Source: a virus. From it: a DNA stretch of 64,000 bases. The DNA lies in the UHGV virus genome UHGV-1367859, one strand, 5' to 3'. Each line of letters opens with the position of its first letter. Positions within the stretch are counted from its first letter, which is position 1. A program made the translations under genes and the position numbers. Below are positions 16,043 through 46,035 of this stretch, in pieces. The notes beneath the pieces are model-generated. The model saw only the letters and a program-made list of their open reading frames with translations, was not told the DNA's origin and searched no databases.

Positions 16043-16048
16043 CCACAT

Positions 16049-16122: not shown

Positions 16123-16124
16123 CT

Positions 16125-16206: not shown

Positions 16207-16214
16207 GATGTATC

Positions 16215-16291: not shown

Positions 16292-16338
16292 AGTGGCATA
16301 GTAGTCCCTGGGGTGGTTTCAAACTGCTATGTCTGTAT

Positions 16339-16410: not shown

Positions 16411-16522
16411 CCTTGGAGGAGCAGGTAGTCTATCCATGGAAAAACCTCCGTAAAAACAGCTACAATTGACTACTAAGGAGAAGGAAGGGATAAATAACTC
16501 CTTAACAAATACCCTTCTACCA

Positions 16523-16594
16523 CTTCCTATAGCTCAATGGTAGAGCTACTGACTCTTAATCAGAAGGTTCAAGGTTCAAATCCTTGTAGGAAGA
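16523..16594 (+). tRNA. tRNA-Lys (anticodon CUU)
   Basis: Acceptor cttccta/taggaag, D-stem gctc/gagc, anticodon stem ctga/tcag, loop ctcttaa, T-arm caagg-ttcaaat-ccttg. Confidence 0.75.
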
Positions 16595-16776
16595 CATAAC
16601 ATTTTAATTAAATAACAGTGTTATGAGAGTACTTAGATTTATTAAGAAAGCAGTCAAAGCTTATTTTAGAATGACTGCTGAGAACTATTCTATAAGGTGT
16701 ACAGGTGATGTATTTATACCTGTCCCTTAAGGATAGTTCCTCCTTCCTCTCTGACAAGTTATTTGATAATAAATAT

Positions 16777-16857
16777 GGGAGTATCGCGTAGTGGCAATCG
16801 CAGTTGACTGTAAATCAACCCTCTAAGAGTTCATAGGTTCGAGTCCTTTTGCTCCCA
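16777..16857 (+). tRNA. tRNA-Tyr (anticodon GUA), long variable arm
   Basis: Acceptor gggagta/tgctccc, D-arm gcg-tagtggcaat-cgc, anticodon stem gttga/tcaac, loop ctgtaaa, a 13-nt variable arm, and T-loop ttcgagt. Confidence 0.75.
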
Positions 16858-16922
16858 CTTCAATAGAACTTTGGCTTTTATCTATAAGCCTGACAGGGGT
16901 AGAGACCTGAATAGATAATATT

Positions 16923-16996
16923 GGAACTTTGGTGTAGATGGTTTGTCACATCAGATTGAAGCTCTGAGGGCTGGGGTTCGACTCCCTGAGGTTCCA
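16923..16996 (+). tRNA. tRNA-Phe (anticodon GAA)
   Basis: Acceptor ggaactt/aggttcc, anticodon stem tcaga/tctga, loop ttgaagc, T-arm tgggg-ttcgact-ccctg. Confidence 0.75.
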
Positions 16997-17019
16997 CTAC
17001 ATAGTAAAAAGAGAAAGAT

Positions 17020-17619
17020 ATGGTAATAAAAAGAGGGGATAAAGGTCCTAATGTAAAGCTCCTTCAGAGGAAGCTTAATCTGAAAGATGATGGAATATTT
17101 GGACCTCTCACAGAAGAAGCAGTCAAAGAATTTCAGAAGGCTAATGGTCTTGTTGTAGATGGCATAGTGGGAAATAACACATGGTCTAAGCTGAATGTAA
17201 CTCAGAACAAGAGGAATATAAAGGAAATTATAGTTCATTGTTCTGCTACTCCTGAAGGTGAGGACTTTACTACTGCGCAGATTAAGCAATGGCACCTTCA
17301 AAGAGGTTTCTCTGATATAGGTTATCATTATGTAATCTATAGAGATGGGTCAATACATGCTGGTAGACCAGAGGCTATATCTGGAGCACACTGTACTGGG
17401 CACAATACAATGTCTATTGGAGTATGCTATATCGGAGGATGTGCCAAGGATGGAAAAACTCCAAAAGATACTAGAACTGAAGCTCAAAAAGCTGCTCTAG
17501 TACAGCTTCTTAAACAGCTTAAAGCAAAGTACCCTAATGCTACAATACATGGCCATAGGGAGTTTGCAAATAAAGCATGTCCAAGTTTTGATGCTAAAGC
17601 AGAATATACTTCTCTCTAA
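17020..17619 (+). CDS. endolysin: peptidoglycan-binding domain plus N-acetylmuramoyl-L-alanine amidase (amidase_2/PGRP type)
   Basis: An N-terminal PG_binding_1-like repeat (GDKGPNVKLLQRKLN...DGIFGPLTEEAVKEFQ) followed by an amidase_2 signature (GYHYVIYRDGSIHAGRPEAISGAHCTGHNTMSIGVCYIGG). It is embedded in the tRNA array. Confidence 0.8.
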   Translation: MVIKRGDKGPNVKLLQRKLNLKDDGIFGPLTEEAVKEFQKANGLVVDGIVGNNTWSKLNVTQNKRNIKEIIVHCSATPEGEDFTTAQIKQWHLQRGFSDIGYHYVIYRDGSIHAGRPEAISGAHCTGHNTMSIGVCYIGGCAKDGKTPKDTRTEAQKAALVQLLKQLKAKYPNATIHGHREFANKACPSFDAKAEYTSL

Positions 17620-17630
17620 AAAGAGAGACA
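17609..17630 (+). terminator. hairpin at the endolysin stop codon
   Basis: The hairpin tctctc-taaaaa-gagaga spans the TAA stop codon and is weakly terminator-like. Confidence 0.3.
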
Positions 17631-17634
17631 ATAA

Positions 17635-17716
17635 GCCTCTGTGGTGAAATGGTAAACACAAGGGACTTAAAATCCCTCGGATTTAATCCTTGAGGGTTCA
17701 AATCCCTCCAGAGGTA
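17635..17716 (+). tRNA. tRNA-Leu (anticodon UAA), long variable arm
   Basis: Acceptor gcctctg/cagaggt, anticodon stem aggga/tccct, loop cttaaaa, T-arm gaggg-ttcaaat-ccctc. Confidence 0.75.
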
Positions 17717-17720
17717 CAAT

Positions 17721-17807
17721 GCCCCCTTGGTGGAATGGTAGACACGCTGGTCTTAGGAACCAGTATGAAGTAATAGTAGTGTGAGGGTTCGAGTCTCTCA
17801 GGGGGTA
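17721..17807 (+). tRNA. tRNA-Leu (anticodon UAG), long variable arm
   Basis: Acceptor gccccct/agggggt, anticodon stem ctggt/accag, loop cttagga, T-arm gaggg-ttcgagt-ctctc. Confidence 0.75.
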
Positions 17808-18252
17808 CTGAAATAAGAAATTAAGTATTTATATAACATTGAGTTTTACTGTAAATATTCAGGTGGCGTAATTCATGTTATCATAACCCCTTTACTATTT
17901 GTAAAAGTATGAAATACACAGTTTAGTATAATAAACAGAAATATCAAGTAGACATATCTGATAATAATATAGCTATTTATGATTCCTATAAAATCACTTC
18001 ATTATCTGATATGAGTAGTTTCTCATTCATTTAAAAGCTAGATTTTACCCATACAGTTCTATTAATAACAGAACTATGTTTAGCTTACTTAATGAATGGA
18101 GAACTCACAATTTATTATATTCTCTTGGTGTTCAAAAAGAAAGAACTGCTAGTGTAGACCTGGAGTCTAATCAATCTTGGTATATGACCGTAGCTTATGC
18201 TATATTATCTCCATTTTATTTACACTTTTATTAAAAATTTATTATCAATTTA

Positions 18253-18292
18253 TTTGGTAATTTAAATTATTTTTCATACCTTTGCATTGTTA
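18253..18292 (+). promoter_or_regulatory. Bacteroidetes-type sigma-A promoter dedicated to the suppressor tRNA
   Basis: TTG at 18254-18256, a 20-nt spacer, TACCTTTG at 18277-18284. The tRNA starts about 18 nt downstream. Confidence 0.5.
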
Positions 18293-18301
18293 ATAAAATA
18301 T

Positions 18302-18373
18302 TGCCTCATGGTGTAATGGTTAGCACAGAGGACTCTAAATCCTTTGGTCTCTGTTCGAGCCAGAGTGGGGCGA
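18302..18373 (+). tRNA. amber-suppressor tRNA (anticodon CUA), Gln-like body
   Basis: Acceptor tgcctca/tggggcg, 7 of 7 paired counting GU pairs. D-arm gtg-taatggttag-cac is nearly identical to that of tRNA-Gln(UUG) at 14222. Anticodon stem gagga/tcctt, loop ctctaaa with U33, CTA at 18335-18337, and A37. T-arm ctctg-ttcgagc-cagag. Confidence 0.75.
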
Positions 18374-18706
18374 CTAACTTTAATCACAATGAATAAGGAA
18401 GCTTTAAAATGGTTTATGTCCAATGTAATGCTCTAGCTAGAGCAGATTGACAAAGAGGTAAGTAACTCACTGTTGCAGGATGAACAGTTTGTTCTTGATT
18501 TTTATGATAAATTAAATGAAATAAGTGTTAGAAAATAAAAAAAATATAATTATGGAACAGGTAAAGATACCACACCCTATTGCTAGGATGGTGCTAACAC
18601 AGACTAAAATTATTCTTAATAGCCCCAACAACCAAGACAAAGAGTGGCTCAAAACTTTTAAAGAAGAACTTAATAAACTTATTAATCCTGAGTAATCTTT
18701 AGGAAA

Positions 18707-18779
18707 GCTTCCTTAGTTCAGCTGGTAGAACTACTGTTTTGTACTCAGTATGTCAGGGGTTCGAGTCCTCTAGGAAGCT
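18707..18779 (+). tRNA. tRNA-Thr (anticodon UGU)
   Basis: Acceptor gcttcct/aggaagc, D-stem gttc/gaac, anticodon stem actg(t)/(t)cagt, loop tttgtac, T-loop ttcgagt. Confidence 0.65.
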
Positions 18780-18788
18780 CAAGTAAGT

Positions 18789-18859
18789 GCAGGATTAGTT
18801 TAATGGTAAAATGCCACTCTTCCAAAGTGGATTTGGGGGTTCGATTCTCCTATCCTGCT
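18789..18859 (+). tRNA. tRNA-Gly (anticodon UCC)
   Basis: Acceptor gcaggat/atcctgc, anticodon stem ccact/agtgg, loop cttccaa, T-loop ttcgatt. Confidence 0.7.
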
Positions 18860-18865
18860 CTATAT

Positions 18866-18938
18866 TGTGGGGTGTTAGCAGTGGTAGCTAGTCAGGCTCA
18901 TAACCTGAAGGTCGGAGGTTCGAGTCCTCCTCCCGCAA
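18866..18938 (+). tRNA. tRNA-Met (anticodon CAU); the initiator / elongator / Ile2 distinction is unresolved
   Basis: Acceptor tgtgggg/tcccgca, D-stem tagc/gcta, anticodon stem tcagg/cctga, loop ctcataa, T-arm ggagg-ttcgagt-cctcc. Confidence 0.6.
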
Positions 18939-19111
18939 CTAAATCGAAATATTATGGGAGAAGATATGTATAAGAACGGAAAGATAATGAATGCTGTTGA
19001 AGCTCAGACTATCAGGGAGCTAGCAGATTTTGCCAATGATTATAAGATACCTAGGGAGGATGTGGTTTCAATCCTTCCTTCAAGAGAAGGATATGTAATG
19101 GTTTACTACTA

Positions 19112-20979: not shown

Positions 20980-21645
20980 ATGTACACAGTATATAAACAC
21001 ACCAATAAAGTTAATGGCAAGGTCTACATAGGTCAGACCTCTTTTAATGTGGGAAAGAGATGGAAAGAGGGGAGAGGATACAAAACAGGTATCTTTAAGA
21101 GAGCCATAGAAAAGTATGGGTGGGATAACTTTAAGCATGATATAATAAAAGAAGGACTAACTAAAGAGGAAGCTAATCTGTTAGAGATAACCTTAATTAA
21201 AGAATATAAGGAGCTAGGCATATCTTATAATATAACTGATGGCGGGGAAGGGTCTCTTGGATATAGGCATTCTGAAGAGACTAGAAGAAAAATGAGTGTT
21301 AAAGGCAAAGGTAAAAAGATACCTGAGCATGTTAAGCTCTTAGTAAGTTCCAGATTCAAAGGTGTTCCTCTCACAATAGAGCATAAATTAAAGATAAGTT
21401 TATCCTTACAAGGAAAGCCTAAGTCTGAAGAGGCTAAGCTTAAGATGAGACTTAATCACAGTTATCATGACTTAATTGAAATAGTTAAATGTGATAAAGA
21501 AGGAAATATAATTTGTACATACCCATCAATAGCTGATGCAGCTAGAGATACTGGAGTTTTGGAGACTCACATATCAAGATGTGCTAGAGGTAAAAGACCA
21601 TCAGCTGGAGGTTATAAATGGAAATATAAAAATGAAACTACTTAA
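20980..21645 (+). CDS. GIY-YIG homing endonuclease
   Basis: N-terminal VYKHTNKVNGKVYIGQT (GIY-YIG), the NITDGGEG motif, and C-terminal NUMOD-like basic repeats. Confidence 0.8.
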   Translation: MYTVYKHTNKVNGKVYIGQTSFNVGKRWKEGRGYKTGIFKRAIEKYGWDNFKHDIIKEGLTKEEANLLEITLIKEYKELGISYNITDGGEGSLGYRHSEETRRKMSVKGKGKKIPEHVKLLVSSRFKGVPLTIEHKLKISLSLQGKPKSEEAKLKMRLNHSYHDLIEIVKCDKEGNIICTYPSIADAARDTGVLETHISRCARGKRPSAGGYKWKYKNETT

Positions 21646-22174: not shown

Positions 22175-22583
22175 TATGACACTTGAAGATGTAATTGAAT
22201 CACTTAATGTGCATATACTGAATAAAAGAAGAGACTTGCACATCTTGTCAAACAGCCAGGAACACCTTGTTCTACAGAGAGTTATAGAACCTCATCCTAC
22301 ATTTAAGTCATATAAGAGGTATGAGTTTATATTATGGGTGGTTGGTAATGATTCAAAGTATAGATTACTTACTTTGACTAAGCAGGTTAATATGAGTGAT
22401 ATTCCTTCATATGCACAAGAGAGCTTTATTAAAGCTACAGAATCTGAATTTGTTACTGGGCTATTCGGCCTTATTCTAGATGGCAAGTCTTTTAATAAAA
22501 AAGACAGAACAATACTTGAAGATATTATCTATGGAGAATACCTCGGCTATGGAGATGAATGTGTACTAGACCCCCTTGACTGA
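22140..22583 (+). CDS. hypothetical protein
   Basis: 147-aa ORF. Confidence 0.4.
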   Translation: MLRKKQCMKICNMTLEDVIESLNVHILNKRRDLHILSNSQEHLVLQRVIEPHPTFKSYKRYEFILWVVGNDSKYRLLTLTKQVNMSDIPSYAQESFIKATESEFVTGLFGLILDGKSFNKKDRTILEDIIYGEYLGYGDECVLDPLD

Positions 22584-25500
22584 AGAACTCCTTGGGTCTT
22601 TACCTGAGGAAGTCAAGGAGGAGTTATTGGACACTATAAATAGTGTAGAACTTATAAAAAGACTTATCTCTCCTAATAGGGTATATGCTAAGGATAGACC
22701 AAGAGATGAGCAAGGAAGGATTATAGTAGACCTTGCCAATCCTCATATACTTGAGGATATGGATTATTTCAGACAACCAGCCTTACACTTTATGAAGCAT
22801 GGCTGCTATACTTTTCTAAGACCAAATTCTAATCCTAACAGTGAATACAGAAAGCACTGGGATGAGGAGATGAGGAGATGTAGAGAGGGTTATGTAAGGG
22901 AGAGTGATGGAGAATGGGTCACAGGATTCCTTTATTGGTTTCTTAATTACTGTCCCATGATGGTAAATAAGGTAATTTCTGGCACAAGGAAAGCTGTCAG
23001 AGTTGAGTCTTTCCCCTTCTTCTTTGAAGGAATCTATTGGAGATTTCACTATCTTCATCAAGCAAGAGAGGCTGGTAAACATGCCATAGAACTTGCAAAG
23101 AGAGGTTGTGCAAAGTCATATAGTCTTGCAAGTATAATGTCTCACAACCTTATACTTGGTGAATCTACTGAAGTAAAGAGGAGGGTTATTACTGTACTTA
23201 CTGCTTATCAGAAAGAGTATCTTAGTGACAGTAAGGATGGCACACTCTCTAAGTTCAAACCTGGAATTAACTTCTCCTTCAAAAATACTCCATTCCCTAG
23301 GCTCATGTTAAAGAACTCTCCTAATGAGATGGCATGGCAGATGGGCTACAAGGATGAGTTTGGTATTGAAAGTGGGTCATTGAATCAGGTGCTTGCTGTT
23401 TCTGCAAAGGATGACTCAGAGAAGTTAAGAGGTAAGAGAGGTTGGATTCTATTCGAGGAGATGGGTTCTTTTAAGGGACTTCTATCCCTGTATGACATCA
23501 CAAGAAAATCTGTAGAAGATGGTGACTATACATTTGCTACAATGTACCTTGTAGGTTGTGTATGTGCTGGTACTAAGGTATGGACATTAGATGGCAGGAA
23601 TATCAATATAGAGGATTTAAAGAGAGAGGATGGTATCATAGGATTTACAGACTCCTTTGAGTCAGGTACTGAACCTAATATTCGCCTCACAAGAGGGATT
23701 ACCAAAGAACCTATAATGAGTTCTATAAGTATTGCTAAAAAACCATGTGTACTTATTAAACTGAGTAATGGAAATGAACTTAGATGCTCTACAGACCATC
23801 CAATTCTTACTCAGAAACAAAGAATGAATCATAATGGGTCTATAAGGTATTATGAAGAAGTATTCAAAAATGCTGGAGCTTTAAGTGTAGGAGATAGAAT
23901 TATAGAGAGTAGGGAAGTTCCAATATTTGGGACAGATACCATGTTTGACCCTAGATTAGTAGGTATGCTTATTGGAGATGGTTCTTATGGATTAAGGCAA
24001 TCCCCCAAGTATAGTTCTGAGGATAAAGAGCTTTTAGACTATGTAAAGCATAGATATGAATGGTCATTATCTGCTACTCATATTACCAAGAAAGGAAAAA
24101 TATACGAGGATATAAGAATTAAAGGTATTTGTAATAAATTAAGAGAATTAGGTATTTAGGGGCAAGTAAAATCCAATAAAAGGCTTCCTATCAACTATTA
24201 GACTCTTACAAGAGATGATACCTCACTATTGCTATCTGGATTATATGATACTGATGGTAGTATAAGCTTTAATAGAGACGGATATATATCTTTAACTCAA
24301 AGCAATAGGAAAATATTAGAGCAAGTTAAAGTACTGTGGAGAAAATTTGGAGTAGTTGGCACTATTGTGGAGACCAAGCCAAAACTATGTTCTGATAGGA
24401 AAGATAGAAATTCTTGGTTTACTCTATCTATATCAGGGAGACATAATTGTACAAGAGTGTGTGGTGTGCTTCAACTTCTTGTTCCACACAAGAGAGATTG
24501 CCTTAAAAGGATAATGGACTATTATAATAGCAATCCGAGTATGAAGGCTCAAAAATATCCAGAGGATATAATAGTTCACAAAGTTACTTCTGTAGAAGAG
24601 ATAGGTGAACAAGAAGTATATAATTTAACTGCTGGATTAAGTCATACCTACTTGGCTAACAATATAGTAACTCATAATACTGCTGCTGAGGATGAGTCAG
24701 ACTTCAGTTCGGCAAAAACTCTTCTTTACAATCCAGATGGTTACAATATTCTGGCTATTGAGAATGTCTATGACAGACCTAAGCAAGGAAAGCCTACCTT
24801 TGGATTTTTCTTTCCTTCTTATGTAAATAGGGCAGGATGTTACAACAAGGATGGTGTTTCTGATGTAACAAAGGCTCTCATAGAAATTCTGTTGGCAAGA
24901 CACAAAGCTAAATATTCTGCTGACCCTAAGTCAGTATTAAGAGTTATTGCCGAGGACCCAATTACACCAGCTGAAGCTATCATTAAAGTGAAGGCTGCCT
25001 ACTTTCCTACAGTAGCTCTTACTGAGAGATTGGCTCAACTTGACTCAGACCCTCATGCTTTTGATGATGTTTACATAGGTAATCTTGCCCTAGCAAGTGG
25101 TAATAAGGTAGAGTTTAGAATAGGTAATGATGTGCCTATCAGAAAGTATGGAGTTGACAATTCAACAGTAGGTGCTATTGAGATATTTGAAATGCCTGAG
25201 AAACAAGCAAATGGGGATGATTTCAATATGAGATATATTATAGGCCATGACCCTGTGGATAATGATTAGGCAGAGTCTTCTTCTCTTTCTTCAACCTTTG
25301 TACTTGACCTGTTTACTGACAGAATTGTAGCAGAATACACTGGTAGGCAGGCATTTGCAGATGATAACTTTGAGATAGTAAGAATGCTGTGTCTATTCTA
25401 TAATGCCAAGTGCATGTACGAGGCTCATCCATATAGTCAGTCTGTACCAACACCAAATGGTATGAAACTGTGGAAGGATGTTAAAATAGGGGATAAACTG

Positions 25501-26904
25501 TTTTCCCCCACAAAGGGTGAAGTAACAGTAACTAATATACCAGTTGATGAGTACATGCCTATATATAAGGTTAAATTAGCTGATGGCAGAATTGTAGAAG
25601 CTAGTAATAATCATATATGGCTAGTATATAAAGGAACTTCTAGAACTCCTATCGAAATTACTACAGAAGAAATGCTTAGGTCAGGGTTAATAACTAAACA
25701 CAAGCAACATAAGTTTTTTATACCTGAGCATAATGGGGTTGATTATAGTTATAAAGAATTGCTCATAGACCCCTATACTATGGGTTTATTGCTTTCTGAA
25801 GGGAGTCTAACAGGAGGTCATTGTGGCAAAAATTATGTACAGATGTCCTCTTCTAGGGAAGATATGGATTTCTACAAAAAGAATATCCCATATAGAGTTA
25901 ACTATATTGGTAACAAGGGGTACTCTTGGCATATTTATATTCCAGGATGTAGAGATATAATGACTAAATATGGGTTATATGGAGCTACAAGTCACACTAA
26001 GTTCATTCCAAATGAATATCTTTTCAGTAACTATGTTCAGAGAATGGAACTACTGAGGGGAATAATGGATGGAGATGGGTGTGCCAGAACTAGGGGGGCT
26101 AGTGTATTTATTACATGCTCACAGTCACTTGCAAATAATGTATTATCCTTAGCTAGAAGTTTAGGGATGAAAGCATGGCTTCAGACTCCTAAAGAAGGGG
26201 TATATAGAGTGTTGATATCTTCCATATATAAGATATTCAAACTCCCTAGGAAAGTAGTGGAGCAACATACTTATAAGCCTTATAGTAAAGGAAGTAGAGC
26301 CTCAGCTATATTAGGAAAGACTGCGATAGATAGTATTAAATATTCTCACATGGAAATGGGCAAATGTGTCACTGTAGACTCAGATGATGGACTATATATG
26401 ATAGGAGATTATGTAGTAACTCATAATTGTAATAAGAAAGGACTATATGCCTATTTCAATAAAATGAATTGCACACACCTACTGGCAGATACTCCTGAAT
26501 ATTTAAGAGACAAACAGATGATTAAGTATTCTGCCTTTGGCTCAAATGCAAAAGGTATCAATGCGAATGCTACTATCAACAATTATGCTAATAACCTGAT
26601 AAGGGATTGGCTACTTCAGCCAGTTCCAACTATAATAAAGGAGGATGGAGAAGAGAAAGAGGTCAATATTCCAAGGCTCTATTCTCTAAGAAATAGAGCA
26701 TTACTTGAAGAGTTAATTTCCTACACTCCTGAACTTAATGTGGATAGAATCAGGGCATTAGGTATGGTTATGCTGTATAGACAAGAGAAGATTATACTGT
26801 ATAGAGATAATCTTAATGCTAAGGCACAGGAGGAAGTCAGTAGTTCATACTTAGGCAATGATTCTTTCTTCCAAAGGAATTACTCCCAAGGGTATATACA
26901 GTAA
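22576..26904 (+). CDS. terL: terminase large subunit interrupted by two LAGLIDADG inteins; contains 3 in-frame TAG codons
   Basis: The track ORFs at 22576-24159, 24229-25269 and 25384-26904 are all in frame 1, separated only by TAG codons at 24157, 24211 and 25267. Intein hallmarks are C-VCAGTKVWTLDG ... LIGDGSYG ... LYDTDGSI ... VTHN|T, and C... LLSEGSL ... IMDGDGC ... VVTHN|C. The exteins carry a terminase ATPase/nuclease-like sequence. Confidence 0.65.
23557..24678 (+). mobile_element. intein 1 (Hint splicing domain plus LAGLIDADG homing endonuclease)
   Basis: Begins at a Cys (block A CVCAGTKVWTLDG) and ends at ...NIVTHN with +1 Thr. It has two LAGLIDADG-type motifs and contains two in-frame TAG codons. 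Confidence 0.55.
25411..26427 (+). mobile_element. intein 2 (Hint plus LAGLIDADG), N-terminal boundary approximate
   Basis: LLSEGSLTGG and GIMDGDGCA are LAGLIDADG motifs. The C-terminus is DYVVTHN with +1 Cys. The N-terminal Cys could be 25390 or 25411. Confidence 0.45.
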
Positions 26905-27004: not shown

Positions 27005-29400
27005 ATGAGTGATTTCACAAATTTACCCCCACAACAACTGCCATTCTCCAGAAAGAATAAGGCTTGGAGAAAGAAGCACCTTGACTGGGCTGGCTCTAAG
27101 ACATTTTTCAACTATTCTTTGGTAAGGAAGAGTGTGATACATAAGAAAATCAACTATGATTTACTTAATGGTAGGCTTCACATGAGTGACCTTGCAATGG
27201 TATTGAACCCTGATAACATAAAGGCAGGTTACATACCTGAAAGGATTCAACATTACCCTATAATGAATAGTAAGCTGAATGTTCTTAGGGGAGAAGAGTC
27301 CGATAGAGTATTTGACTATAGGGTAGTTGTAACTAATCCAAATGCTATTTCTGAAATAGAGAATAATAAAAAGCAGGAATTACTTGCAAGAGTTCAGCAA
27401 CTATTAGCTGAGGAGACTCAATCAGAGGAAGAGTTCAATGCAGAGCTTGAAAAACTCAATGACTTCTTTACTTTTGAGTGGCAAGACATGAGAGAGGTAA
27501 GAGCCAATGCTCTCCTTAATCACTACTCTAAAGAGCTTAATTTCCCCTTCCTCTTTAACCAAGGTTTTACTGATGCAATGGCAGTAGGTGAAGAGATTTA
27601 CCAATGTGATATTGTAGGTGGTGAACCTATCATAGAAAGACTAAATCCTCTTAAAGTCAGAGTATTCAAGTCAGGATATAGTAACAGGATTGAGGATGCT
27701 GATATGATTGTACTTGAGGACTATTGGAGTCCTGGTAAAATCATAGACACTTATTATGATGTCCTTACCAAAAAGGACATGGAGTACATAGAAAAGATGC
27801 CCAATAACACAGACCAAGTAACTGACTCTATGGATAACATAGATGATAGAATGGGGTTTGTAAATGGGCACATGATAGGGGAAGAATTTACTTCTCAGGA
27901 AGGTTTCTTCTGGGACCCCATAGGAATGACAGATGGTGTAGGCACTTCACTTCTTCCTTTTGATGTTGCAGGAAATATAAGGGTACTTAGAGTTTACTGG
28001 AAATCAAGAAGGAGAATTAAGAAAGTTAAGTCTTACGACCCTCAGACAGGTGAAGAGGTATTTAATCTCTACCCAGAAACTTACGTTATAGATAAGGACA
28101 AAGGTGAGGAGGAAAAGATATTATATATCAATGAAGCCTGGGAAGGGACAAAGATAGGTAATGACATCTATGTCAACATGAGACCTAGAGTAGTTCAGTA
28201 TAACAGACTATCCAATCCTTCAAGGTGCCATTTTGGTATTATAGGTTCTATCTATAACCTTAATGACAACAAGCCTTTCTCTCTTGTTGATATGATGAAG
28301 CCCTATAACTATCTCTATGATACAATTCATGATAGGCTCAACAAGCTAATCTCAAGAAACTGGGGTATGCTTATTAACCTTGACCTTGCTAAGGTTCCTA
28401 AAGGATGGGAGATAGAGAAATGGATGTACTTTGCTAAGACTAATGGTATTGTAGTTACAGATAGTTTTAAGGAAGGCAATATTGGTGCTGCTACAGGTAA
28501 GCTTGCAGGTGCTCTTAACAATGCAAGTTCTGGAGTTGTCAATGCTGAACTTGGTAATACTATACAGCAATATACCAATCTTCTTGAGTTTATCAAGATG
28601 GAAATGTCTGATGTGGCTGGTATTTCTAGGCAAAGAGAAGGTCAGATAAGTAATAGAGAGACTGTTGGTGGTGTCGAAAGAGCTACCTTACAATCTTCTC
28701 ATATAACTGAATGGCTCTTTATCATACATGATGATGTAAAGAAGAGGGTTCTTGAGGCATTCCTTGAAACAGCTAAGATAGCTTTAAGAGGCAGAAGTAA
28801 GAAGTTCCAGTATATTCTTTCTGATAATTCAAGTAAGGTTATGGACATAGATGGAGATGAGTTCTCTGAAAATGATTATGGCCTTGTTGTAGATAATAGT
28901 AATGGACTACAGGAGTTACAGCAGAAGATGGATATGCTTGCTCAGGCAGCTTTGCAGAATCAGACTCTTACCTTCTCCACTATCATGAAGCTCTATAATA
29001 GCTCTTCTCTTGCTGAAAAACAGAGAATGGTTGAGAAGAATGAACAGGAGCTTATGCAAAGACAGCAGGAAGCTCAACAGCAGCAATTACAGGCTCAGCA
29101 ACAATAGGCTCAGATGGAAGCTCAGATAAGGGAAGCTGAAATGCAGCTCAAAGATACAATGAATCAGAGAGATAATGAGACTAAGATACTTATAGCAGGT
29201 ATAGGTTCTCAAAGTCAGGAAGATGGCATCCAAGAGCAGGAGTTTTCTGAAGAGGCAAGAGCTAATCTGTTTGAAAAGATGAGAGAGTTTGATGAGAGGC
29301 TCAAACTTGACAGAGAAAGGTTAGCCTTTGATAAGAAGAAAGCTCAAACTGATGCTGAACTCAAAAGAAAATAGATTAATAAGAAACCAAATACTAGTAA
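27005..29400 (+). CDS. portal protein candidate (reads through 2 TAG codons)
   Basis: A large protein of more than 700 aa directly after the terminase. The frame stays open through TAG at 29105 and 29372 to TAA at 29398-29400, and has a Gln-rich C-terminus. Confidence 0.45.
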
Positions 29401-29403
29401 GTA

Positions 29404-30318
29404 ATGAGAAAATTTGATAATATAATACATTCAAATTCAGCCCCTCCTACCAATAGTCTGTGGCTCCATAATGACAAACTTCAATACCATAACAATGGCA
29501 AATGGACTGATATAATATTAACGATAGGAGAAGACAATCCAGAGGCTAAGTTAAAGTTTGAAGAGAGAGAACTGAGTCCCCTACATGACTATGTACCTGT
29601 TATACTTGTAAATAGAGACCGCGACGCGCCACTCAAAATTTTAGCAACGTTTTATAATGGTCAAGTAACAGCAATTGCCGATGGCAAGGCTATTATTTTC
29701 AATGTAGACTACAATGAGAATTGGCTTGTAAAGGAGACTAGAATTATTGACCTTACTCTACTTCCTACCTATGTTGACCTTGAACTAGGTGACTCTCCTG
29801 AGATTGAAGCATATAATAGAGAACAGCTGTCTAGGGTGGCAGGAACATAGTTCCTTGTTCATGCTGACTATGGCATTGGAGTAGGTTCTTGGTATTATAA
29901 TGCAGGTGGAGAAGCTACCATCACTACAGCATCAGGTAACAGAGTGCATTACATATTAACTGCGGATGGAGCTTGTAGAAGGGATGCTGACCACTTTGAC
30001 CATTCTGAATTATTTTATGATTTAGGGGTTATTAACTTAGCTGAAATAACTCCTACAACTATAATAAATAAAGAGATAACTGACTCTGTAGGGGTGGCTC
30101 AGTTCAAAAAAGCTTCGAATGTAGTTCTGACTGTTCACACTTCAAATGGAGATTTTGAAGTTAATTGCCCTCAGGTTTCAATGGGTCCTATTCAAAAGAC
30201 ATTTAATAGTCCTAGCATTGTAGCTGGTAATGAAGATAGTTGGAATTATCTTAAGATAATAGCTAACATCCAAACTGACCCAAGCAAAGTATTAATCACT
30301 ATTGAGGCAATGCAATGA
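29404..30318 (+). CDS. virion structural protein candidate (1 in-frame TAG)
   Basis: Track ORFs 29404-29850 and 29944-30318 are in the same frame and are joined only by TAG at 29848-29850. The gene ends with TGA. Confidence 0.5.
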
Positions 30319-31109
30319 GAAAGTTTAGAGCAATAGTACAAACTCCAAAAGAACCATAGGACCATGAAGTCTTATGGTATTGGAAGGGTAATCTACTATA
30401 CTGGAATAATGGAGGTTGGGAACCATTTCATACCAATATTAAAGCTTCAGATATAAAATTTGAGTCTATCTTTTTTGATAATAAAGATAATGTAGATGAG
30501 GTACTAAGGGCATTACTTGAGATAGTTATAAGTAACCAATGGAAAATAGAGAATGCTTTTACAGTAATTGAAGCTGACAATATCCTTACTAATTCATTCT
30601 TTATTGATAGTACTAAGTATTGGTTATCTGAGATTCTTCAACCTTTTACAGTAGGGGCTAAATTTATTAAGGTAGGGAAAGGGTTTCTCTCTAAACAGAG
30701 AGCTAAAGCTGCTGTAATCAGAGAAGATGGAGTTCCTGTATTAGCTGTAAAGGGTTCCACTATACCTTGTACCCTTACTTAGCCTTTCTTATTCTTAAAT
30801 CTGGAAGCAATAGACCCTGATTATAAATTCCCATTCTATGTTACTTTAACATTCAAATTTAAAGGAACTTCATTTGGTAATATAGAAATAGCTACCGTAG
30901 ATTAGGATGGTGAGTCTATTGAAATAAAAGATACTTTGAGAATAGAACCTGATAATAAATGGCACATATATAAAACTACTTTTTTACTTGATAGGTATAA
31001 AGGAATAAGGTTTAATTTAAATGCTGATGTAAGGATAAAGGGGTTAAATATGAGAATGAATGAGGCTAGGACCCTTCATCTCAAGCCAGAAAGTTTAATT
31101 AATAAATAA
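30315..31109 (+). CDS. amber-recoded structural protein
   Basis: Manual translation gives 264 codons with 3 in-frame TAG and a TAA stop. The ATG overlaps the previous TGA (ATGA). Confidence 0.5.
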
Positions 31110-31152
31110 TGTAGATATGACTAAATAGGAAAAGGATGAACTATTTAATGAG

Positions 31153-32214
31153 TTGCTAGCTTTTCTCTCTAGGTCTTCAGTAAGTGTTGAAGACCTTCCA
31201 GAGGCTGGCAGCTTAGATGATGTGAATAGTTTTCCTGCATATAAGAAAGACTCTAAGGAGCTGGTAACCATTCCTTCTAGTGCTCTTAAAGAAGCTTCAA
31301 ATAAAGCTGATGCAGCTGCTCAGTCTGCACTTAGTGCATCTTAGCAATGTATGATTGCTGGAGCTAATGCTAACAATGCTGTATAGAGAGTCAACTAGAC
31401 CTTGAATTCTTTGCCTGGTTAGGTAGAAACACTGGTTAATAATTCTACTAGTGCACAGTCTAATGTAAATTCTAGAATTATTAATTTCTATACAAGTAGA
31501 CCTTCTTCTAATGCACTTGAATTAGAAATAACTGTATCAGAAAATGATTATAGAACTTTTGAATAGCTTCTGGAAGAAGAGTATGACTATGCTGATAGTT
31601 ATGACCATAGACCAATAATATTTACAGTTCTACAGAATAATGGTGTACCTAAGTATAGGAAGATTGTTTATGACAATAACCTTAGGGATAGTTAGAACTA
31701 TATTGACTATGACTTAAGTGGACTTCATGAGAGAATAGATACTCTTGACAGTAGGGTTCCTTATGATGCAGGAATAATAGAACTAGATTTAGTAAGTCAA
31801 GGAGAAACAACTTCCAAACAGGAAACTTTATTGCCTTCTAATAAAAATTATTTCAAATTTATAGAGATACTAGAATAGAGGGATAATAGGACTGTGCTAT
31901 GTACTATTGTCCCATCTAAAACTTAGGTAGGAAGTCCTTATACTGGTTTCAGATTCTTATGTTCTCTTCATAAGGATGGCTATGACTGGTCTATTCTTAC
32001 AGGTAAATATATTGATGTTGGTGAGGATGCAATAAACATTTATTATCTTTGTATTAAATGTTATAAGCCAACTTTTGGAGTAGGTGATGGGATGAGTATA
32101 TTAAAGTATCCTATTAAACAAGTAACTATTAGGCTTACTGAAGGTGAAGGAGATGGTCATTGTACAGAATTGTAGGAGATTAAAGCAACTGAAATAGTTG
32201 AAAAAATGATATAA
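31153..32214 (+). CDS. amber-recoded structural (tail-fibre-like) protein
   Basis: 353 codons with about 10 in-frame TAG and no TAA/TGA until 32212-32214. Confidence 0.5.
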
Positions 32215-32237
32215 TAAATGATAAATGAATTTTAAGT

Positions 32238-33295
32238 ATGGAAATTGAATATTTAGGAAAAAGCTCTTTTAATAAAATATAGAACTAGCTTCAGCTTCTT
32301 AATTCCTATAGTGAATGGAAAGACATCACTGAAGAGTGTGTTCATATTGGATATAAAGTTAATCCACAGATAGTTCCTTAGGATTTGCAAGAAGGTAATG
32401 ACATTTTTGTGGAAGATGAAAATAGTATTGCAATAAATGCTGTAAGCCTCTTATCAGAGGATGCTACTTGGTGTGGTGACTTGAACGTTGCGTATAACTT
32501 TAAAATATTAATTTAGCCTAAAGCTTCTTCTAGCTCTGACATGGGTTTAATTGCTCAAACTATCTTAAGTAAGGATTTTGTTGGAAAAACCCTCGTAGTA
32601 AAAGCTGCTAATATTGGAGAGGAAGTGGAAGAGGATTACTCCATATAGGACATAACAGTTAGTGAAGTTTTAGAAAATGGACTTACATATAAATAGAGGG
32701 AGAGCAGGTTTTTCAATGAGAAGGAGCAATTTGTGGCAAGCCTAATGGTAAGTTAGGCAGTAGTATCTTTCCATTATAACCAGGAATATAAATACAAGGT
32801 AGTTTACAAAGACTCTGTCTTTACAACGCCAGCCGACTTTGTAAATAAAATGGTATATGGAGACGCTCCTTTTAGTATGATTGGTTAGAAGCTCTCCTCC
32901 GCAACTTTCAGTGATGATACCGATTAGATAAGGACCCTCTGGCCATAGGGTTGGGCCTCTTTTATAGTTGTTCCAGTATATGAAGGCGAGCCGAATGGTA
33001 ATGTTAAGTCAGGTCTAAGAGTTGAATATTATAGTGGTGATAACACTAAACATGAAACTATAGTGGACAATACATCATACCAGTCTATATATGGTTAGAC
33101 TGATTATCTTATTATACCAAAAGTAAAAGGAGCTACCTAGTCAGACTACCTAGTTATAGGTAGGATTGACTCAGCTTTTAAACCAGTGGGAGTTGAAATC
33201 TATGAGATGACTGCTCCTTATAGATAGATTGTCGATAGGGTAAGTGATGTAGACTATAGAATCAGAGAATTAGAAAAGTAGCTGAATGCTACATA
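32238..33295 (+). CDS. amber-recoded structural (tail-fibre-like) protein
   Basis: About 352 codons with about 15 in-frame TAG, terminating at TAA. Confidence 0.45.
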
Positions 33296-33317
33296 AATAT
33301 AATATTTTTTTTTCTAA

Positions 33318-33360
33318 TCACAATAAATCTACTTATTCTATCGTGTAAGTAGATTTATTG
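33318..33360 (+). repeat. long perfect inverted repeat (hairpin)
   Basis: acaataaatctact ... agtagatttattgt, a 14-bp stem, directly upstream of a -7-like TAACTTTG at 33364-33371 and the ATG at 33374. Confidence 0.5.
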
Positions 33361-33373
33361 TTTTAACTTTGTG

Positions 33374-33801
33374 CGATGAAAAAATATATAATTTGTTGGA
33401 TAATAGTAATAGCAAGTATACTTTCATCAAGCTTAATATCCTGCACAACTACAAGAGAGGTTGAAGTTCCTGTTTACATCGAGACTACAAAGACTGAATA
33501 TATCAACTAGCTTTATAAAGATAGCATATTTATACATGATAGTATTGATAGATATATTTCAGGAGATACTGTGTATCAGTATAAATACAAGTACATATAT
33601 AAGTATCTGAACAGAACAGACACTATAGTTAAGACTGATAGTATAGAAGTCCCTGTTGAAGTAAAGACAACTGAAATAAAGGAAGTCAATAAGTTAAAGG
33701 GCTATCAATCATTTCTTATGTGCTTTGGATTTGGCTTTATCCTTATCCTGCTTTATAAGGCTATTAACTTTGGGAGAACCATTTTTAATAAGAGCAACTA
33801 A
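33374..33801 (+). CDS. lipoprotein with C-terminal TM helix (unimolecular-spanin-like); 1 in-frame TAG
   Basis: MKKYIICWIIVIASILSSSLISC is a signal peptide with a lipobox Cys. The C-terminal segment FLMCFGFGFILILLY is a TM helix. There is a TAG at codon 45. Confidence 0.4.
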
Positions 33802-33980: not shown

Positions 33981-34340
33981 ATGGAAATGATTGGGATGGA
34001 AACACTCATTACTGGAGGTATAGGGTTACTTACTACTATTGTTAGTGCTTGGGCTTCCTGGGTATTTGCCAGGAAGAAATATAACAGTGAGGTAGATAAT
34101 AACTTAATACAAAACATGCAAGAATCTTTGGACTTTTACAAGAAGTTGTCCGATGATAATAGGGCAAGGCTGGAAGAGGTTCTGAAGAGAAATGAAGACT
34201 TGGAAGATGAGGTTAGAGAACTAAGGGCACAGCTATTCAGCCTTATGAGTTCTATCTGTACTGACCTCTCTTGTCAAATAAGAAGAAGGGAACTTACAAA
34301 CTTAGATACATTCAAACATGAAGAAAGTAAATCTGAATAA
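33981..34340 (+). CDS. TM plus coiled-coil protein (lysis-associated candidate)
   Basis: An N-terminal TM helix followed by charged heptad-like repeats (EEVLKRNEDLEDEVRELRAQL). Confidence 0.4.
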   Translation: MEMIGMETLITGGIGLLTTIVSAWASWVFARKKYNSEVDNNLIQNMQESLDFYKKLSDDNRARLEEVLKRNEDLEDEVRELRAQLFSLMSSICTDLSCQIRRRELTNLDTFKHEESKSE

Positions 34341-34629: not shown

Positions 34630-35037
34630 ATGGCAAAGGAGGATGTCTTAAGAAGTGAAGTCCTGTATAAGGTACTTTTAGGCTCCTTAAAGATTATACC
34701 AATGCTGATAGCAATGTGCTATATGTTAAACACAGCACTTGCATATATAGATATTGACATTCCAGTGTTGAGTAACCTCGCTGGGATGTCTTTGTTTACA
34801 TGGGTATTCATTTACTTAGCCTCTATAGTATTCAGATTTTGTGCATATCATAGAATGTTTCTGTACTATATACTTGTCATAGACATACTGAATATAGTTG
34901 ATTATTATGTAGGAATACCTATATCAGACTTTAATTTAATGATGATTCACAGTGTCATAACAGGACTGACATTATTCACAATATTATATCTATATGTTAA
35001 ACATAATAAGCAATCTATTAAGACGTATAGCCGATAG
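34630..35037 (+). CDS. multi-pass membrane protein (holin candidate)
   Basis: Three to four hydrophobic helices in 135 aa. It is adjacent to the spanin-like genes. Confidence 0.35.
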   Translation: MAKEDVLRSEVLYKVLLGSLKIIPMLIAMCYMLNTALAYIDIDIPVLSNLAGMSLFTWVFIYLASIVFRFCAYHRMFLYYILVIDILNIVDYYVGIPISDFNLMMIHSVITGLTLFTILYLYVKHNKQSIKTYSR

Positions 35038-35290
35038 AATTGATGAAGGTTCCATTAGTTCTAACCATGAAGAGACTATGCAGGTTGTGGAGGCTATTCA
35101 AGGATTTGTTGATAAGGAACAGAGACTCAGTAAGTATGAAGCCTGTAGATACCTTAATATAAGTAGAGCTACATTTGATAATTATGTCAGAGCAGGCAGA
35201 TTGCCTAGAGGTAAACATCAGGCAGGTTTCAAAGAATTATCATGGTCTAAGAAAGAACTTGATTCTATTATAAGGGAGAATAGAAAATAA
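34994..35290 (+). CDS. HTH DNA-binding protein (AlpA/excisionase-like)
   Basis: ACRYLNISRATFDNYVRAGRLP is a helix-turn-helix signature. Confidence 0.35.
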   Translation: MLNIISNLLRRIADRIDEGSISSNHEETMQVVEAIQGFVDKEQRLSKYEACRYLNISRATFDNYVRAGRLPRGKHQAGFKELSWSKKELDSIIRENRK

Positions 35291-41950: not shown

Positions 41951-42745
41951 ATGTCGCAAATTGAAAACCTTATGACTGCGGAAGAAAGAAGAATAAGAAA
42001 TTAGGAATTTAGTAATGAGTTTGATATAATTTACAACAGCATTACAAGTAATCAGGCTCCTGGTTTGGATGAATATGAGAAGTCTGTATTTCTAACTAAG
42101 GCTCAAGATGAAGTAGTAAAAGCTTATTTTAGTCCAAAAACTAATAAGTCTCAAGAAGGTTTTGACGGAAGTGAGATAAGGTAGATTGATTTCTCTATGC
42201 TCGTGGGAGACCGTACAATAGCAGATGCAGACTCTTTTTTAGATGCACACTTTGGCAATAGAAAAAGCAGTAAAAGTATCATCCTTCAAGATGATATATT
42301 CATGTTTATCAACGAGTATGTTACAGTTTAGAGAGGTAATAACGAAACTAGATTAACTGTTATCCCTATTAGTTACTTGGAGTATAATAGACTCACTAGC
42401 AAACCTTACAAATATCCTCTAAAAAACCAAGCTTGGAGATTGCTTATTTCTGACAGTAATAGAAAGAAAGTTGAATTAATTTTAGGATATTAGGATTCCT
42501 TAATTAGTTATACCTATAGATTTGTTAGACGTCCTAAAGCTATTAGACTAAGTACATTTGACGGTCTTACTATAGGAGGTGAGAGTAGTGAGGAATGTTG
42601 TGAGCTTGACCCAATACTATTTCCAGAGATTATTCAAAGAGCTTGTGAGCTAGCTAAGGCTGCTTATATTGGAGACCTTACTTCACAGGTTGCTCTTGGT
42701 CAGACATCACAGACTAATATGGGTATTGTAACTCAAAGTAGATAA
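41951..42745 (+). CDS. amber-recoded paralogue of the downstream gene (4 in-frame TAG)
   Basis: 264 codons. The N-terminal EFSNEFD...DEYEKSVFLTKAQDEVV aligns with EEFSNEFD...DEYEKSMFLTKAQESIV of the ORF at 42748-43443. It ends with TAA. Confidence 0.5.
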
Positions 42746-42747
42746 TT

Positions 42748-43443
42748 ATGACAAATGAAGAGTTCTCAAATGAATTTGACAGCTTAGTCAACAGCAACTC
42801 TATCATCAAGCCATTTGGTGTAGACTCTATGCCATTGGAATTTGATGAATATGAAAAGTCAATGTTCCTTACAAAGGCACAGGAGAGTATAGTGATAGCA
42901 CTCTACAATGGAAACCTTATAGGAGATTCATTTGAGAAAACAGAGGAACTTAGAAGGTACTTAAGTGGCCTAGTAAAGGATTACCCTGCTACTGAATATG
43001 TAAGAGGTAATAGCCTGACAGGTGACTCTTATATCTTTAACCTTCCTGAGGATGTTTGGTTTATAACCTATGAAGCTGTAACATCAGATGATGAGAAACT
43101 AGGTTGTGCTAAAGGTTCCATTATGGAAGTAGTTCCTGTATCTCAAGATGAACTTCATAAAACAAGAAGCAATCCATTTAGAATGCCTAACAAGAGGAGG
43201 GTATTAAGGCTTGATGTGGAAGACAATAAGGTAGAACTTATCTCTGCATTTACTATAAGTAAATATCAAATTAGATACTTATCAAAGCCAGACCCCATAA
43301 TCCTTGTAGACCTGCCTGATGGACTGACAATAAATAAATTATCAAAAGCAACTAAATGCAAATTAAACCCTGCAATACACAGAGTAATACTAGAAATGGC
43401 AGTTAGCCTTGCCTTGAAGAGTAGAACCAGTGCAGGTAAGTAA
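42748..43443 (+). CDS. structural protein; standard-code paralogue of 41951-42745
   Basis: 231-aa intact ORF without TAG. Confidence 0.5.
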   Translation: MTNEEFSNEFDSLVNSNSIIKPFGVDSMPLEFDEYEKSMFLTKAQESIVIALYNGNLIGDSFEKTEELRRYLSGLVKDYPATEYVRGNSLTGDSYIFNLPEDVWFITYEAVTSDDEKLGCAKGSIMEVVPVSQDELHKTRSNPFRMPNKRRVLRLDVEDNKVELISAFTISKYQIRYLSKPDPIILVDLPDGLTINKLSKATKCKLNPAIHRVILEMAVSLALKSRTSAGK

Positions 43444-45345: not shown

Positions 45346-46035
45346 CTAAATATAATCTTAGTGCAAAGGTAAGCATTTTTAGTATGGTTAGAGGAATTAT
45401 ATACAGATATTTATCTCCTAGTGGGAAGTCTTATATTGGACAAACTACTAATGAGAAACTAAGACGAAGAAGTTGGATGTCTGATAAATACCACTATGCT
45501 GGAGCTAAAATAGATAGAGCCAGAGCCAAGTATGGTAGTAGCTCATTCTTATATGAAGTATTATATATCTAAGAAGCTCGCAATAGAGGACCTAAATAGA
45601 TTAGAAATATACTACATAGGGCTTTATGATTCATATAGGAATGGTTATAATTGTACTATAGGTGGGGATGGAGTCCAAGGATTCAATATGAGTGTTTCTC
45701 AAAAAGAGCATCTCAGGGAATGTAATCTAGGAAAGAAATTATCTGCATCTACGAAGAGAAAGATAGGAATTGCTTCTAGAAGATGGCAAAATACTCCAAT
45801 TAATAGAGGAAGGATGTCCTCTATAAGAAAAGGCAGAAAAAATCCGAATGCAATAGCAGCAATGACCTTAGCTAAAGAGAGACCTATATTGCAGTTCACA
45901 ATGTCTGGTGAGTTTATTAGAGAGTTCCCCAGTATTAAGGCAGCTTATGAGTTTCTTGGTAAAGAAGGTAACATAACAAGTGTGTGTAAAGGTAGAAGAG
46001 CCTCTGCCTTTGGCTATGTATGGAAGTATAAATAA
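45330..46035 (+). pseudogene. GIY-YIG homing endonuclease split by a frameshift
   Basis: ORF 45330-45572 carries IYRYLSPSGKSYIGQT (GIY-YIG). ORF 45532-46035, in another frame, carries YNCTIGGDG plus NUMOD-like repeats. Together they make one GIY-YIG protein interrupted by a +1/-1 shift. Confidence 0.5.

Follow-up and report, generated by a model that had tools for sequence, protein, structure and literature searches.

Amber codons very probably read as glutamine in the virion module of a crAss-like phage genome that carries a Gln-type suppressor tRNA

How amber codons are read is the question raised by a 64,000-nucleotide stretch of the virus genome UHGV-1367859 (hereafter the window; G+C content 37.4%). 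At positions 29404 to 33801 and at other plus-strand loci, long reading frames are interrupted by TAG only, and a preliminary description made from the letters alone had proposed that TAG is a sense codon there, most likely for glutamine (Gln). Our analysis indicates that UAG is very probably decoded as Gln through a suppressor tRNA encoded by the phage. In-frame TAG amounts to approximately 100 codons across about 18 plus-strand genes, which are otherwise open and terminate at TAA or TGA (Table 1).

As had been claimed, the long frames with TAG as their sole interruption are not a product of chance. With TAA and TGA as the only stops, plus-strand open reading frames (ORFs) of at least 200 codons covered 41.7 kb, compared with 27.2 kb under the standard code. 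Taking TGA or TAA as sense gave almost no gain in coverage, and the minus strand gained none. The frame of the muzzle gene runs for 1,590 codons with 40 TAG, no TGA and a single TAA, which is terminal; the other five frames of the same segment contain 59 to 183 TAA and TGA codons each. When the whole window was shuffled 200 times, the longest run free of TAA and TGA had a mean of 163 codons and a maximum of 258. A codon-usage model, trained on the TAG-free genes of the window only and with zero weight given to the three stop codons, gave every TAG-containing ORF a clearly positive score in the claimed frame and a score near or below zero in each of the remaining five; the check by coding potential was therefore positive in the claimed frames only. 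The 40 plus-strand genes end at TAA (35) or TGA (5) and never at TAG, while TAG ends five of 44 genes in the homologous module of crAss001 and two of 36 in that of IAS virus. TGA at 30316-30318 and TAA at 53464-53466 act as terminators, as stated previously, and the "ORF deserts" seen in the preliminary description were rightly ascribed to standard-code gene calling.

Gene content and order assign the window to a crAss-like phage of the subfamily Asinivirinae within the Steigviridae (formerly the "beta" group), in agreement with the crAss-like affinity suggested before. Its gene order is that of gp3 to gp47 of crAss001, with the virion signature genes in the order of gp19 to gp47. Along the window follow the tRNA array, small regulators and a GroES-like protein, TerL, portal, the fibre region, lysis genes, major capsid protein (MCP), ring proteins, auxiliary capsid protein, tail hub, muzzle, cargo proteins 1 and 2, and a giant RNA polymerase (RNAP) subunit; MCP, portal, TerL, ring, muzzle, cargo and giant RNAP genes in crAss001 order place the phage in Crassvirales/Steigviridae. 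In megablast, cr116_1 and the major head gene of the Bacteroides phages DAC15 and DAC17 matched the window at 74-76% nucleotide identity. Crass-specific Pfam families matched the recoded translations of auxiliary capsid protein, tail hub A, ring protein 2 and cargo protein 2, as well as those of cargo protein 1, the muzzle and two ring protein 3/4 genes (41951-42745 and 42748-43443). A sister contig in IMG/VR, IMGVR_UViG_3300045988_037736 (101.5 kb), is 94-99% identical to the window at the nucleotide level. The minus-strand block at the start of the window is syntenic with the right end of crAss001, the site of its middle and early genes.

TAG is a sense codon in these genes, as homologues of the portal, muzzle, ring protein 3/4, cargo protein 1 and TerL align across the TAGs. 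The check proposed earlier, alignment of the recoded translations to crAss-like virion proteins, gave matches that span the TAGs and not TAG-delimited pieces. The portal protein matched PHROG 6547 over residues 5-794 (E = 6e-143). The muzzle protein matched the Pfam families crAss_MUZ (788 bits) and crAss_MUZ_C, and in tblastn its residues 1-1589 aligned with IAS virus, and residues from about 2 to 1587 with gp44 of crAss001 and with 47 further records. The N-terminus of TerL aligns to crAss001 TerL, and its first TAG is opposite Gln in all four references (crAss001, IAS virus, DAC15 and cr116_1); the TAG at 25267 corresponds to CAG in the relatives L009-L012. Both portal TAGs are CAG in L009 (95% protein identity), and CAA or CAG is found in 77 of about 150 aligned cells across relatives. 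The single TAG of the small gene adjoining the lysis region is CAA in L010 and L011.

The identity of the amino acid was addressed by a Codetta-style test, in which all plus-strand proteins were searched by tblastn against six Steigviridae reference genomes and the residues opposite TAG were evaluated with an empirical substitution table. Gln was opposite TAG in 78 of 264 aligned cells (29.5%); in the same test, CAA and CAG codons were opposite Gln in 45% of cells, and codons of other amino acids in 0.3-5%. By log-likelihood, Gln led Ser, Thr and Lys by 135-161 nats, which bears out the earlier preference for Gln. The next relatives (portal 89-95%, MCP 98-99% amino-acid identity) are non-recoded and without the suppressor, and their codons are CAG or CAA at positions 701 and 790 of the portal gene, 898 of TerL and 15 of g30315, as well as at the TAG sites of g37559 and g40937. 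TAG-rich genes are poor in CAA and CAG (22 in the 1,589 codons of the muzzle), and their Gln content is normal (3.9-6%) only when TAG is counted as Gln. CAG/TAG and CAA/TAG polymorphisms occur within the lineage. All 51 TAGs between 38.7 and 55 kb are kept in the sister genome, which was assembled independently, and 31 more in a third assembly. Substitutions relative to the sister fall at the third codon position in 24 of 30 cases in g30315 and in 30 of 35 in the portal gene, indicating purifying selection across the TAGs. Gene calls of a public pipeline for the same lineage also read TAG as Q.

Some gene limits of the preliminary description needed revision. The locus given as 29404-33295 is recoded, but it is not a single gene; it comprises four genes in different frames. 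TerL is recoded as described, but its start is near 22531 rather than at 22576, which adds the TAG at 22567. The portal gene ends at 29404 (not 29400) and the small gene before the lysis region begins at 33376 (not 33374). A TAG at 45511 is TAA in the sister genome and therefore probably lies outside a gene, upstream of the true start of a homing-endonuclease gene.

The genes at 29404-33801, comprising the fibre-region genes and their neighbours, matched no PHROG or Pfam family, and their function is assigned by position, as a fibre or tail region between the portal and lysis genes. In g30315, the TAG at codon 15 is CAG in L009 and codon 128 is polymorphic (CAG/TAG). The full 365-aa protein of g31117 was called by the public pipeline with TAG as Q (97% identity), and its codon 353 is TAG in the window and CAG in the sister; a homologue search with g31117 returned near-identical members of the lineage only. 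In the sister genome a different sequence (32% identity) takes the place of the g32238 centre, and this sequence has TAGs of its own. Judged by such comparisons, the fibre-region genes (31117-33296) are a rearrangement hotspot. A 363-aa protein from another sample, P0002, consists of the N-terminal 58% of g31117 fused to a C-terminal part of g32238. The TAG-bearing gene upstream of the tRNA array had no Pfam or PHROG match.

The window encodes 23 tRNAs (ARAGORN and Rfam), 21 of them in a plus-strand array at 14222-18939. The array includes the suppressor tRNA with Gln-type body that the preliminary description had reported. Compared with the 22 other tRNAs of the window, the suppressor is most similar to tRNA-Gln(UUG), with 23 of the first 26 nucleotides identical, and its acceptor stem and D-arm are those of phage tRNA-Gln. 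Among 80 related loci the suppressor was found in the sister genome only; the next-closest relatives are without it despite having 19-22 tRNAs in the same array, and the exact sequence occurs in IMG/VR in the sister contig only. CUA tRNAs with the same D-arm were found in 77 other IMG/VR contigs, mostly of 100-190 kb, with at best 85% identity to the suppressor. Therefore, this type of suppressor is widespread in gut phages.

The suppressor is carried by an insertion of which only the tRNA part resembles other phages. In the relative L009, the homologue of window 18092-18287 abuts tRNA-Thr directly. Upstream of the suppressor is a TTTG-N20-TAccTTTG motif, which we take to be the Bacteroidetes -33/-7 promoter pattern. 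The bipartite form TTTG-N17-21-TAnnTTTG has two copies on the plus strand of the 64 kb, at 14169-14200 and 18253-18284, each about 20 nucleotides upstream of a Gln-type tRNA; the first precedes tRNA-Gln(UUG). The motif columns and the flank are conserved in an alignment with the regions upstream of tRNA-Gln in four other Steigviridae. The motif at 18253-18284 is a putative promoter, and the suppressor resembles a "promoter + tRNA-Gln" cassette that descends from crAss phages. No bacterial donor was identified when 185,579 species genomes were scanned for tRNAs that share the D-arm and anticodon stem of the suppressor and have a YTG anticodon; the scan yielded 16 short contigs of metagenome-assembled genomes (MAGs), whose tRNAs look like eukaryotic-type tRNA-Gln and are at most 68% identical to the suppressor. 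These contigs, L238-L253 in GTDB MAGs of very different phyla, have near-identical tRNA-Gln genes (GGTCCCATGGTGTAATGGTTAGCACTCTGGACTCTGAATCC...) and are probably host or eukaryotic contamination in the bins.

Table 1. Features of the window that bear on the reading of TAG, with identity to the non-recoded relative L228
Feature	Position	Strand	In-frame TAG	Identity to L228	Remarks
Early/middle block	169-10837	-			21 ORFs including helicase, glucosaminidase, SPFH protein and HNH endonuclease (Pfam); two tRNA-Arg
Gene upstream of tRNA array, function unassigned (g13055)	13055-14089	+	7 (44% of Gln codons)		Coding in claimed frame
tRNA-Gln(UUG)	14222-14294	+			First tRNA of array; probable paralogue of suppressor
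Putative promoter motif, TTTG-N20-TAccTTTG	18253-18284	+			18 nt upstream of suppressor
Insertion carrying suppressor	18290-18706	+			~410 nt; between tRNA-Leu(UAG) and tRNA-Thr
Amber suppressor tRNA	18302-18374	+			Anticodon CUA, Gln-type body; ARAGORN; Rfam tRNA 55 bits
TerL	22531-26904	+	4 (22567, 24157, 24199, 25267)		Two inteins
Portal protein	27005-29404	+	2 (29105, 29372)		
Virion-module gene, function unassigned	29404-30318	+	1		Ends at TGA; TAG kept in sister
Virion-module gene, function unassigned (g30315)	30315-31109	+	3 (43-44% of Gln codons)		
Putative fibre-region gene (g31117)	31117-32214	+	10 (59% of Gln codons)		Coding only in claimed frame
Putative fibre-region gene (g32238)	32238-33296	+	14 (67% of Gln codons)		
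Small gene adjoining lysis region	33376-33801	+	1		Lipoprotein-like signal; C-terminal transmembrane segment
Lysis-region membrane protein	34630-35043	+	35035		TGA one codon on
Major capsid protein			0	99%	
Ring protein 1			0	92%	
Ring protein 2			0	90%	
Tail ring protein 3/4	41951-42745	+	4	66%	All TAGs common to sister; Pfam PF25710, E = 2e-51, residues 16-239
Muzzle protein	48697-53466	+	40 (65% of Gln codons)	41%	crAss001 gp44 homologue
Cargo protein 1	53569-56043	+	6	63%	gp45 homologue; TAGs common to sister; Pfam PF25725
Virion RNA polymerase subunit	57808-64000, past window end	+	4		gp47 homologue; crAss001 synteny

Several points weigh against the decoding of UAG as Gln. The suppressor and the tRNA-Gln of the same phage share only 67% identity, so that the assignment of the suppressor to Gln rests mainly on the codon alignments. 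The six reference genomes are mutually related and the cells of the likelihood test are not independent, although its margin is still very large. The fibre-region genes in 29404-33296 are without homologues beyond the immediate lineage; therefore, their case consists of frame statistics, codon usage and comparison within the lineage. No RF2, glutaminyl-tRNA synthetase or other release-factor or synthetase family was found among the 50 ORFs of the 64-kb window scanned with Pfam and PHROGs, about 37 kb of the genome lying outside it. Finally, TAG is not wholly purged as a stop. In the lysis-region membrane protein gene, the TAG at 35035 is at the stop position of the relatives, which end in "...SR*Y*". 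The minus-strand ORF 9441-9767 does end at TAG, as noted previously, but homology does not show that this TAG is read as a stop: in-frame conservation of its C-terminus is absent among relatives, and tblastn of the product with its read-through extension against 50,697 phage records gave no match. In a comparison of 9378-9500 (minus strand) with L165 and L173, the 3' end of this ORF and 60 nucleotides past the TAG were conserved as nucleotides with frames shifted. This segment may therefore not code for protein; a small RNA or a regulatory element close to the tRNA-Arg genes is conceivable.

The recoding is partial. The share of TAG among Gln codons is 59-67% for the muzzle and two fibre-region genes, 43-44% for g30315 and g13055, 27% for ring protein 3/4, and 4-11% for TerL, portal and the gene at 29404-30318; for MCP and many others it is 0%. 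The G+C content is 0.32-0.36 in TAG-rich genes and 0.37-0.43 elsewhere. The minus-strand block has no TAG against 107 CAA/CAG, and the regulator and chaperone genes at 19.2-22.6 kb have none against 31. The stretch between TerL and the end of the window holds 91 TAG and 451 CAA/CAG (Fisher p = 2.6e-8 in comparison with the minus-strand block), and three genes upstream of the tRNA array contain eight TAGs. The preliminary description placed the recoding in the late and structural genes. This is true of many late genes but not of the class: TAG is absent from MCP, the auxiliary capsid protein, ring proteins 1 and 2 and cargo protein 2, among others.

This distribution raises the question of timing. 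RNA-seq of crAss001 located early genes at the right end, replication genes as the middle class and late genes in the left half, the late genes including terminase, structural and lysis genes and gp47 (PMC8375218). Both the middle and the late genes of phi14:2 need the host RNA polymerase (bioRxiv 10.1101/2020.03.07.982082). Judging by synteny, all the TAGs lie in the module corresponding to the late module of crAss001, and the early and middle genes inside the window (the minus-strand block) are translatable with the standard code. In the model of Borges et al., in-frame stops hold back late proteins until a suppressor is available (10.1101/2021.08.26.457843). The confinement of TAGs to the late-syntenic module therefore fits this model, but incompletely. 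Eleven late genes including MCP are without TAG, the recognisable lysis genes carry none or one, the promoter motif of the suppressor is of the same type as that of the tRNA array, and the two TAGs at gene ends described above, one of them in a late gene, are kept. On balance, the idea that the recoding functions as a timing gate has in our view close to an even chance of being right, at best.

TAG may instead be a sense codon without any timing or regulatory role. Recoding would then be a near-neutral by-product of acquiring the suppressor, after which CAG-to-TAG changes were tolerated and TAG-rich modules could be imported, and highly expressed genes would be TAG-free only since suppression is inefficient. 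The density of TAG indeed follows divergence from the nearest non-recoded relative and not function, with the muzzle and MCP as the extremes (Table 1). The lysis genes are TAG-poor (none in the amidase at 17020-17619 and in the holin-like gene at 33981-34340, one in the small gene adjoining them), unlike the lysis bias of Borges et al., and a suppressor with the host-type promoter of the tRNA array need not be late-specific. Against this, the early/middle block and the regulator genes at 19-22.6 kb are strictly TAG-free, as a translational gate predicts, though TAG-free early genes are also expected if they were simply never replaced. We consider an entirely passive origin somewhat unlikely.

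The identities to relatives suggest that the TAG-rich genes have a mosaic origin. The muzzle is about 40% identical to the muzzle genes of relatives with MCP 98-99% identical, and in a database search its nearest homologues outside the lineage had 50-53% identity. Two recoded contigs, L236 and L237, are 79% identical to the window in MCP, 63% in ring protein 1 and 53-55% in the muzzle. Their genes are not translatable under table 11 and have TAG in many late genes (25-30 in the muzzle, none in MCP). Because the identity pattern of the muzzle is incongruent with that of MCP and ring protein 1, this gene probably arrived by recombination, its source being a crAss-like lineage with fuller recoding. 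The backbone genes (TerL, portal and a gp33-like gene) have few TAGs, which are CAG in the nearest non-recoded relatives, and these isolated TAGs look like in-situ CAG-to-TAG (C-to-T) changes. For the TAG-rich fibre-region genes, ring protein 3/4 and g13055, no donor is known. Tentatively, and with rather less than even confidence, we propose that amber recoding in this lineage spreads horizontally and not by gradual drift, through insertion of a cassette followed by import of TAG-rich modules. A "promoter + tRNA-Gln(CUA)" cassette, paralogous to the tRNA-Gln cassette of crAss phages, would have entered the tRNA array of a standard-code Steigviridae backbone. It would then have served as a compatibility key, with which TAG-rich virion modules (muzzle, ring protein 3/4 and fibre genes) could be imported from more recoded crAss-like phages. 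If this is true, the genetic code is a barrier to module exchange between phage lineages, the suppressor tRNA is a licence, and the genome captures the first step.

Decoding may proceed as follows. The phage tRNA(CUA) with its Gln-type body would be transcribed from its own TTTG/TAnnTTTG host-type promoter and, by analogy with supE-type suppressors, charged by the host glutaminyl-tRNA synthetase; the charged suppressor would compete with host release factor 1 at UAG. TAA and TGA are still the stops of every plus-strand gene. Being TAG-free, the early and middle genes of the minus strand would not have to wait for the suppressor to be translated. Full-length products of about 18 late genes would depend on suppression; the highly expressed MCP and 10 other late genes avoid TAG.

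It is very improbable that TAG is read as another amino acid, such as pyrrolysine, Ser, Tyr, Leu or Trp. ARAGORN labels the suppressor "tRNA-Pyl", some TAG positions are opposite N, S, T or E in distant homologues, and TAG/TAC and TAG/GAG differences occur within the lineage. However, the label derives from the anticodon alone, and the likelihood lead of Gln, the CAG/CAA codons at the same sites in the nearest relatives, the Gln content and the D-arm and acceptor stem of tRNA-Gln type all argue for Gln. Pyrrolysine in particular was rejected, given the Gln-type tRNA body, Lys being 161 nats worse and the absence of pyl genes among the scanned ORFs. The view that the TAGs are genuine stops is effectively refuted, whether it invokes pseudogenes, errors of sequencing or assembly, or separate short ORFs, with or without occasional leaky readthrough: the host presumably uses the standard code and no release-factor-related gene was found in the window, but the TAGs recur in independent assemblies, the essential TerL, portal and muzzle genes would all be broken, the frames are interrupted by TAG only and never by TAA or TGA, homology and the third-position substitution pattern run across the TAGs, and the cognate suppressor is found only in the TAG-bearing lineage.

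TerL contains two inteins, at 23557-24678 and about 25421-26427, with Cys...THN boundaries and precomputed Logan Pfam matches to Intein_splicing and LAGLIDADG_3. Intein content varies among near-identical genomes; the sister is without 25421-26431 and has an extra segment of about 1,023 bp at window position 23106. Removal of the TAGs by intein or intron excision was rejected as an explanation, as just two TerL TAGs (24157 and 24199, inside the first intein) fall in an intein. Free-standing homing-endonuclease genes of the HNH/GIY-YIG types were found at 8236-8652 (minus strand), 15365-15961, 20980-21645, 45532-46035 and 46788-47495. Some are inside the tRNA array and the virion module, and some are missing or swapped in the sister (45668-46019 is unaligned).

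A complete transfer-messenger RNA (tmRNA) gene, missed by ARAGORN, is located at 7606-8001 on the minus strand (Rfam RF00023, 69.5 bits; gathering threshold 47). Its tRNA-like domain is intact, and its predicted tag is AEVDETPVRMAA, ending at UAA. The exact 28-nucleotide 3' end is found in 59 IMG/VR contigs, mostly of 95-104 kb, including the non-recoded relative IMGVR_UViG_3300045988_042591. A link between tmRNA and recoding was therefore rejected, and the gene is a feature of a crAss subgroup. In two papers on crAss-like phages that mention tmRNA, it appears only through the citation of ARAGORN. The syntenic site of crAss001 (L254 10454-10597; record 96453-96596, minus strand) gives no tmRNA but a 144-nucleotide tRNA-clan Rfam match of 46.6 bits in the unannotated 906-bp gap between gp95 and gp96, which may be an interrupted or degenerate tRNA- or tmRNA-like gene.

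TAG recoding itself has been published (Yutin 2021; Borges 2021/22; Peters 2022); it is real here and not new, and the current picture of phage recoding is unchanged. The present case adds, modestly, a suppressor in cassette form and TAG-rich genes of mosaic origin. Standard-code calling fragments the muzzle, fibre, ring, cargo, portal and terminase genes, and annotation of this lineage needs TAG as Gln. The lineage provides a clean and recent snapshot of a code change within a well-studied family. Its synteny with the cultivable crAss001 suits the study of suppressor tolerance in a standard-code Bacteroidales host, of late gating and of module movement. B. intestinalis and B. thetaiotaomicron are hosts of the relatives crAss001, DAC15 and DAC17.

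The preliminary description likened the recoding to the kind described for crAss-like and Lak phages. The crAss-like part is correct, and Lak is an analogy only. Membership in the Lak megaphages was rejected, the sister genome having 101.5 kb compared with more than 540 kb and crAss-like gene content; the likeness is in the type of recoding. The classical supE suppressor (E. coli glnV, CUG to CUA) likewise combines the body of a tRNA-Gln with the anticodon CUA, and it places Gln at UAG while competing with RF1. Here, the suppressor is encoded by the phage, on its own putative promoter cassette, and is paired with about 100 obligatory sense TAGs.

For two crAss-like phages, Peters et al. 2022 (PMC9523058) report evidence from metaproteomics for code 15, in which TAG stands for glutamine; the predicted decoding is the same as here, and the genomes tested there are others. 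Borges et al. described stop recoding that regulates late and lysis genes, and included TAG-recoded crAss-like phages of about 105 kb (10.1101/2021.08.26.457843). The present phage resembles theirs in its low G+C content, its suppressor tRNA, recoding in the structural module, early and replication genes that keep the standard code, and some genes that prefer TAG over CAA/CAG. It differs in two respects: no RF2 or tRNA synthetase of a "code-change module" was found among the window ORFs scanned with Pfam and PHROGs, and the strongest TAG preference is in the muzzle and two fibre-region genes, not in an amidase or spanin.

The closest parallel is with the work of Yutin et al., who found stop reassignment in beta, delta and zeta crAss-like phages, mainly in late genes and often with suppressor tRNAs (Yutin 2021, PMC7886860). 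Their beta-group genome OFRY01000050 acquired a CUA suppressor and, unlike its closest relatives, "started to accumulate TAG" in conserved genes (PMC7886860). Both lineages belong to the beta group/Steigviridae, both have a CUA suppressor missing from the closest relatives, and both have TAG in late genes like TerL, with the rest compatible with the standard code. OFRY01000050 has 96.5 kb, eight tRNAs and 15 TAGs in TerL, compared with 101.5 kb in the sister, 23 tRNAs in the window and four TAGs in TerL here. Therefore, the present lineage is a second case akin to OFRY01000050 and not the same genome. Yutin et al. suggested a bacterial source for their suppressor, whereas the upstream flank and promoter motif here are like those of crAss-phage tRNA-Gln genes. 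In contrast to OFRY01000050, most TAGs of the present phage are in divergent and not in backbone genes, with a muzzle gene that was probably imported.

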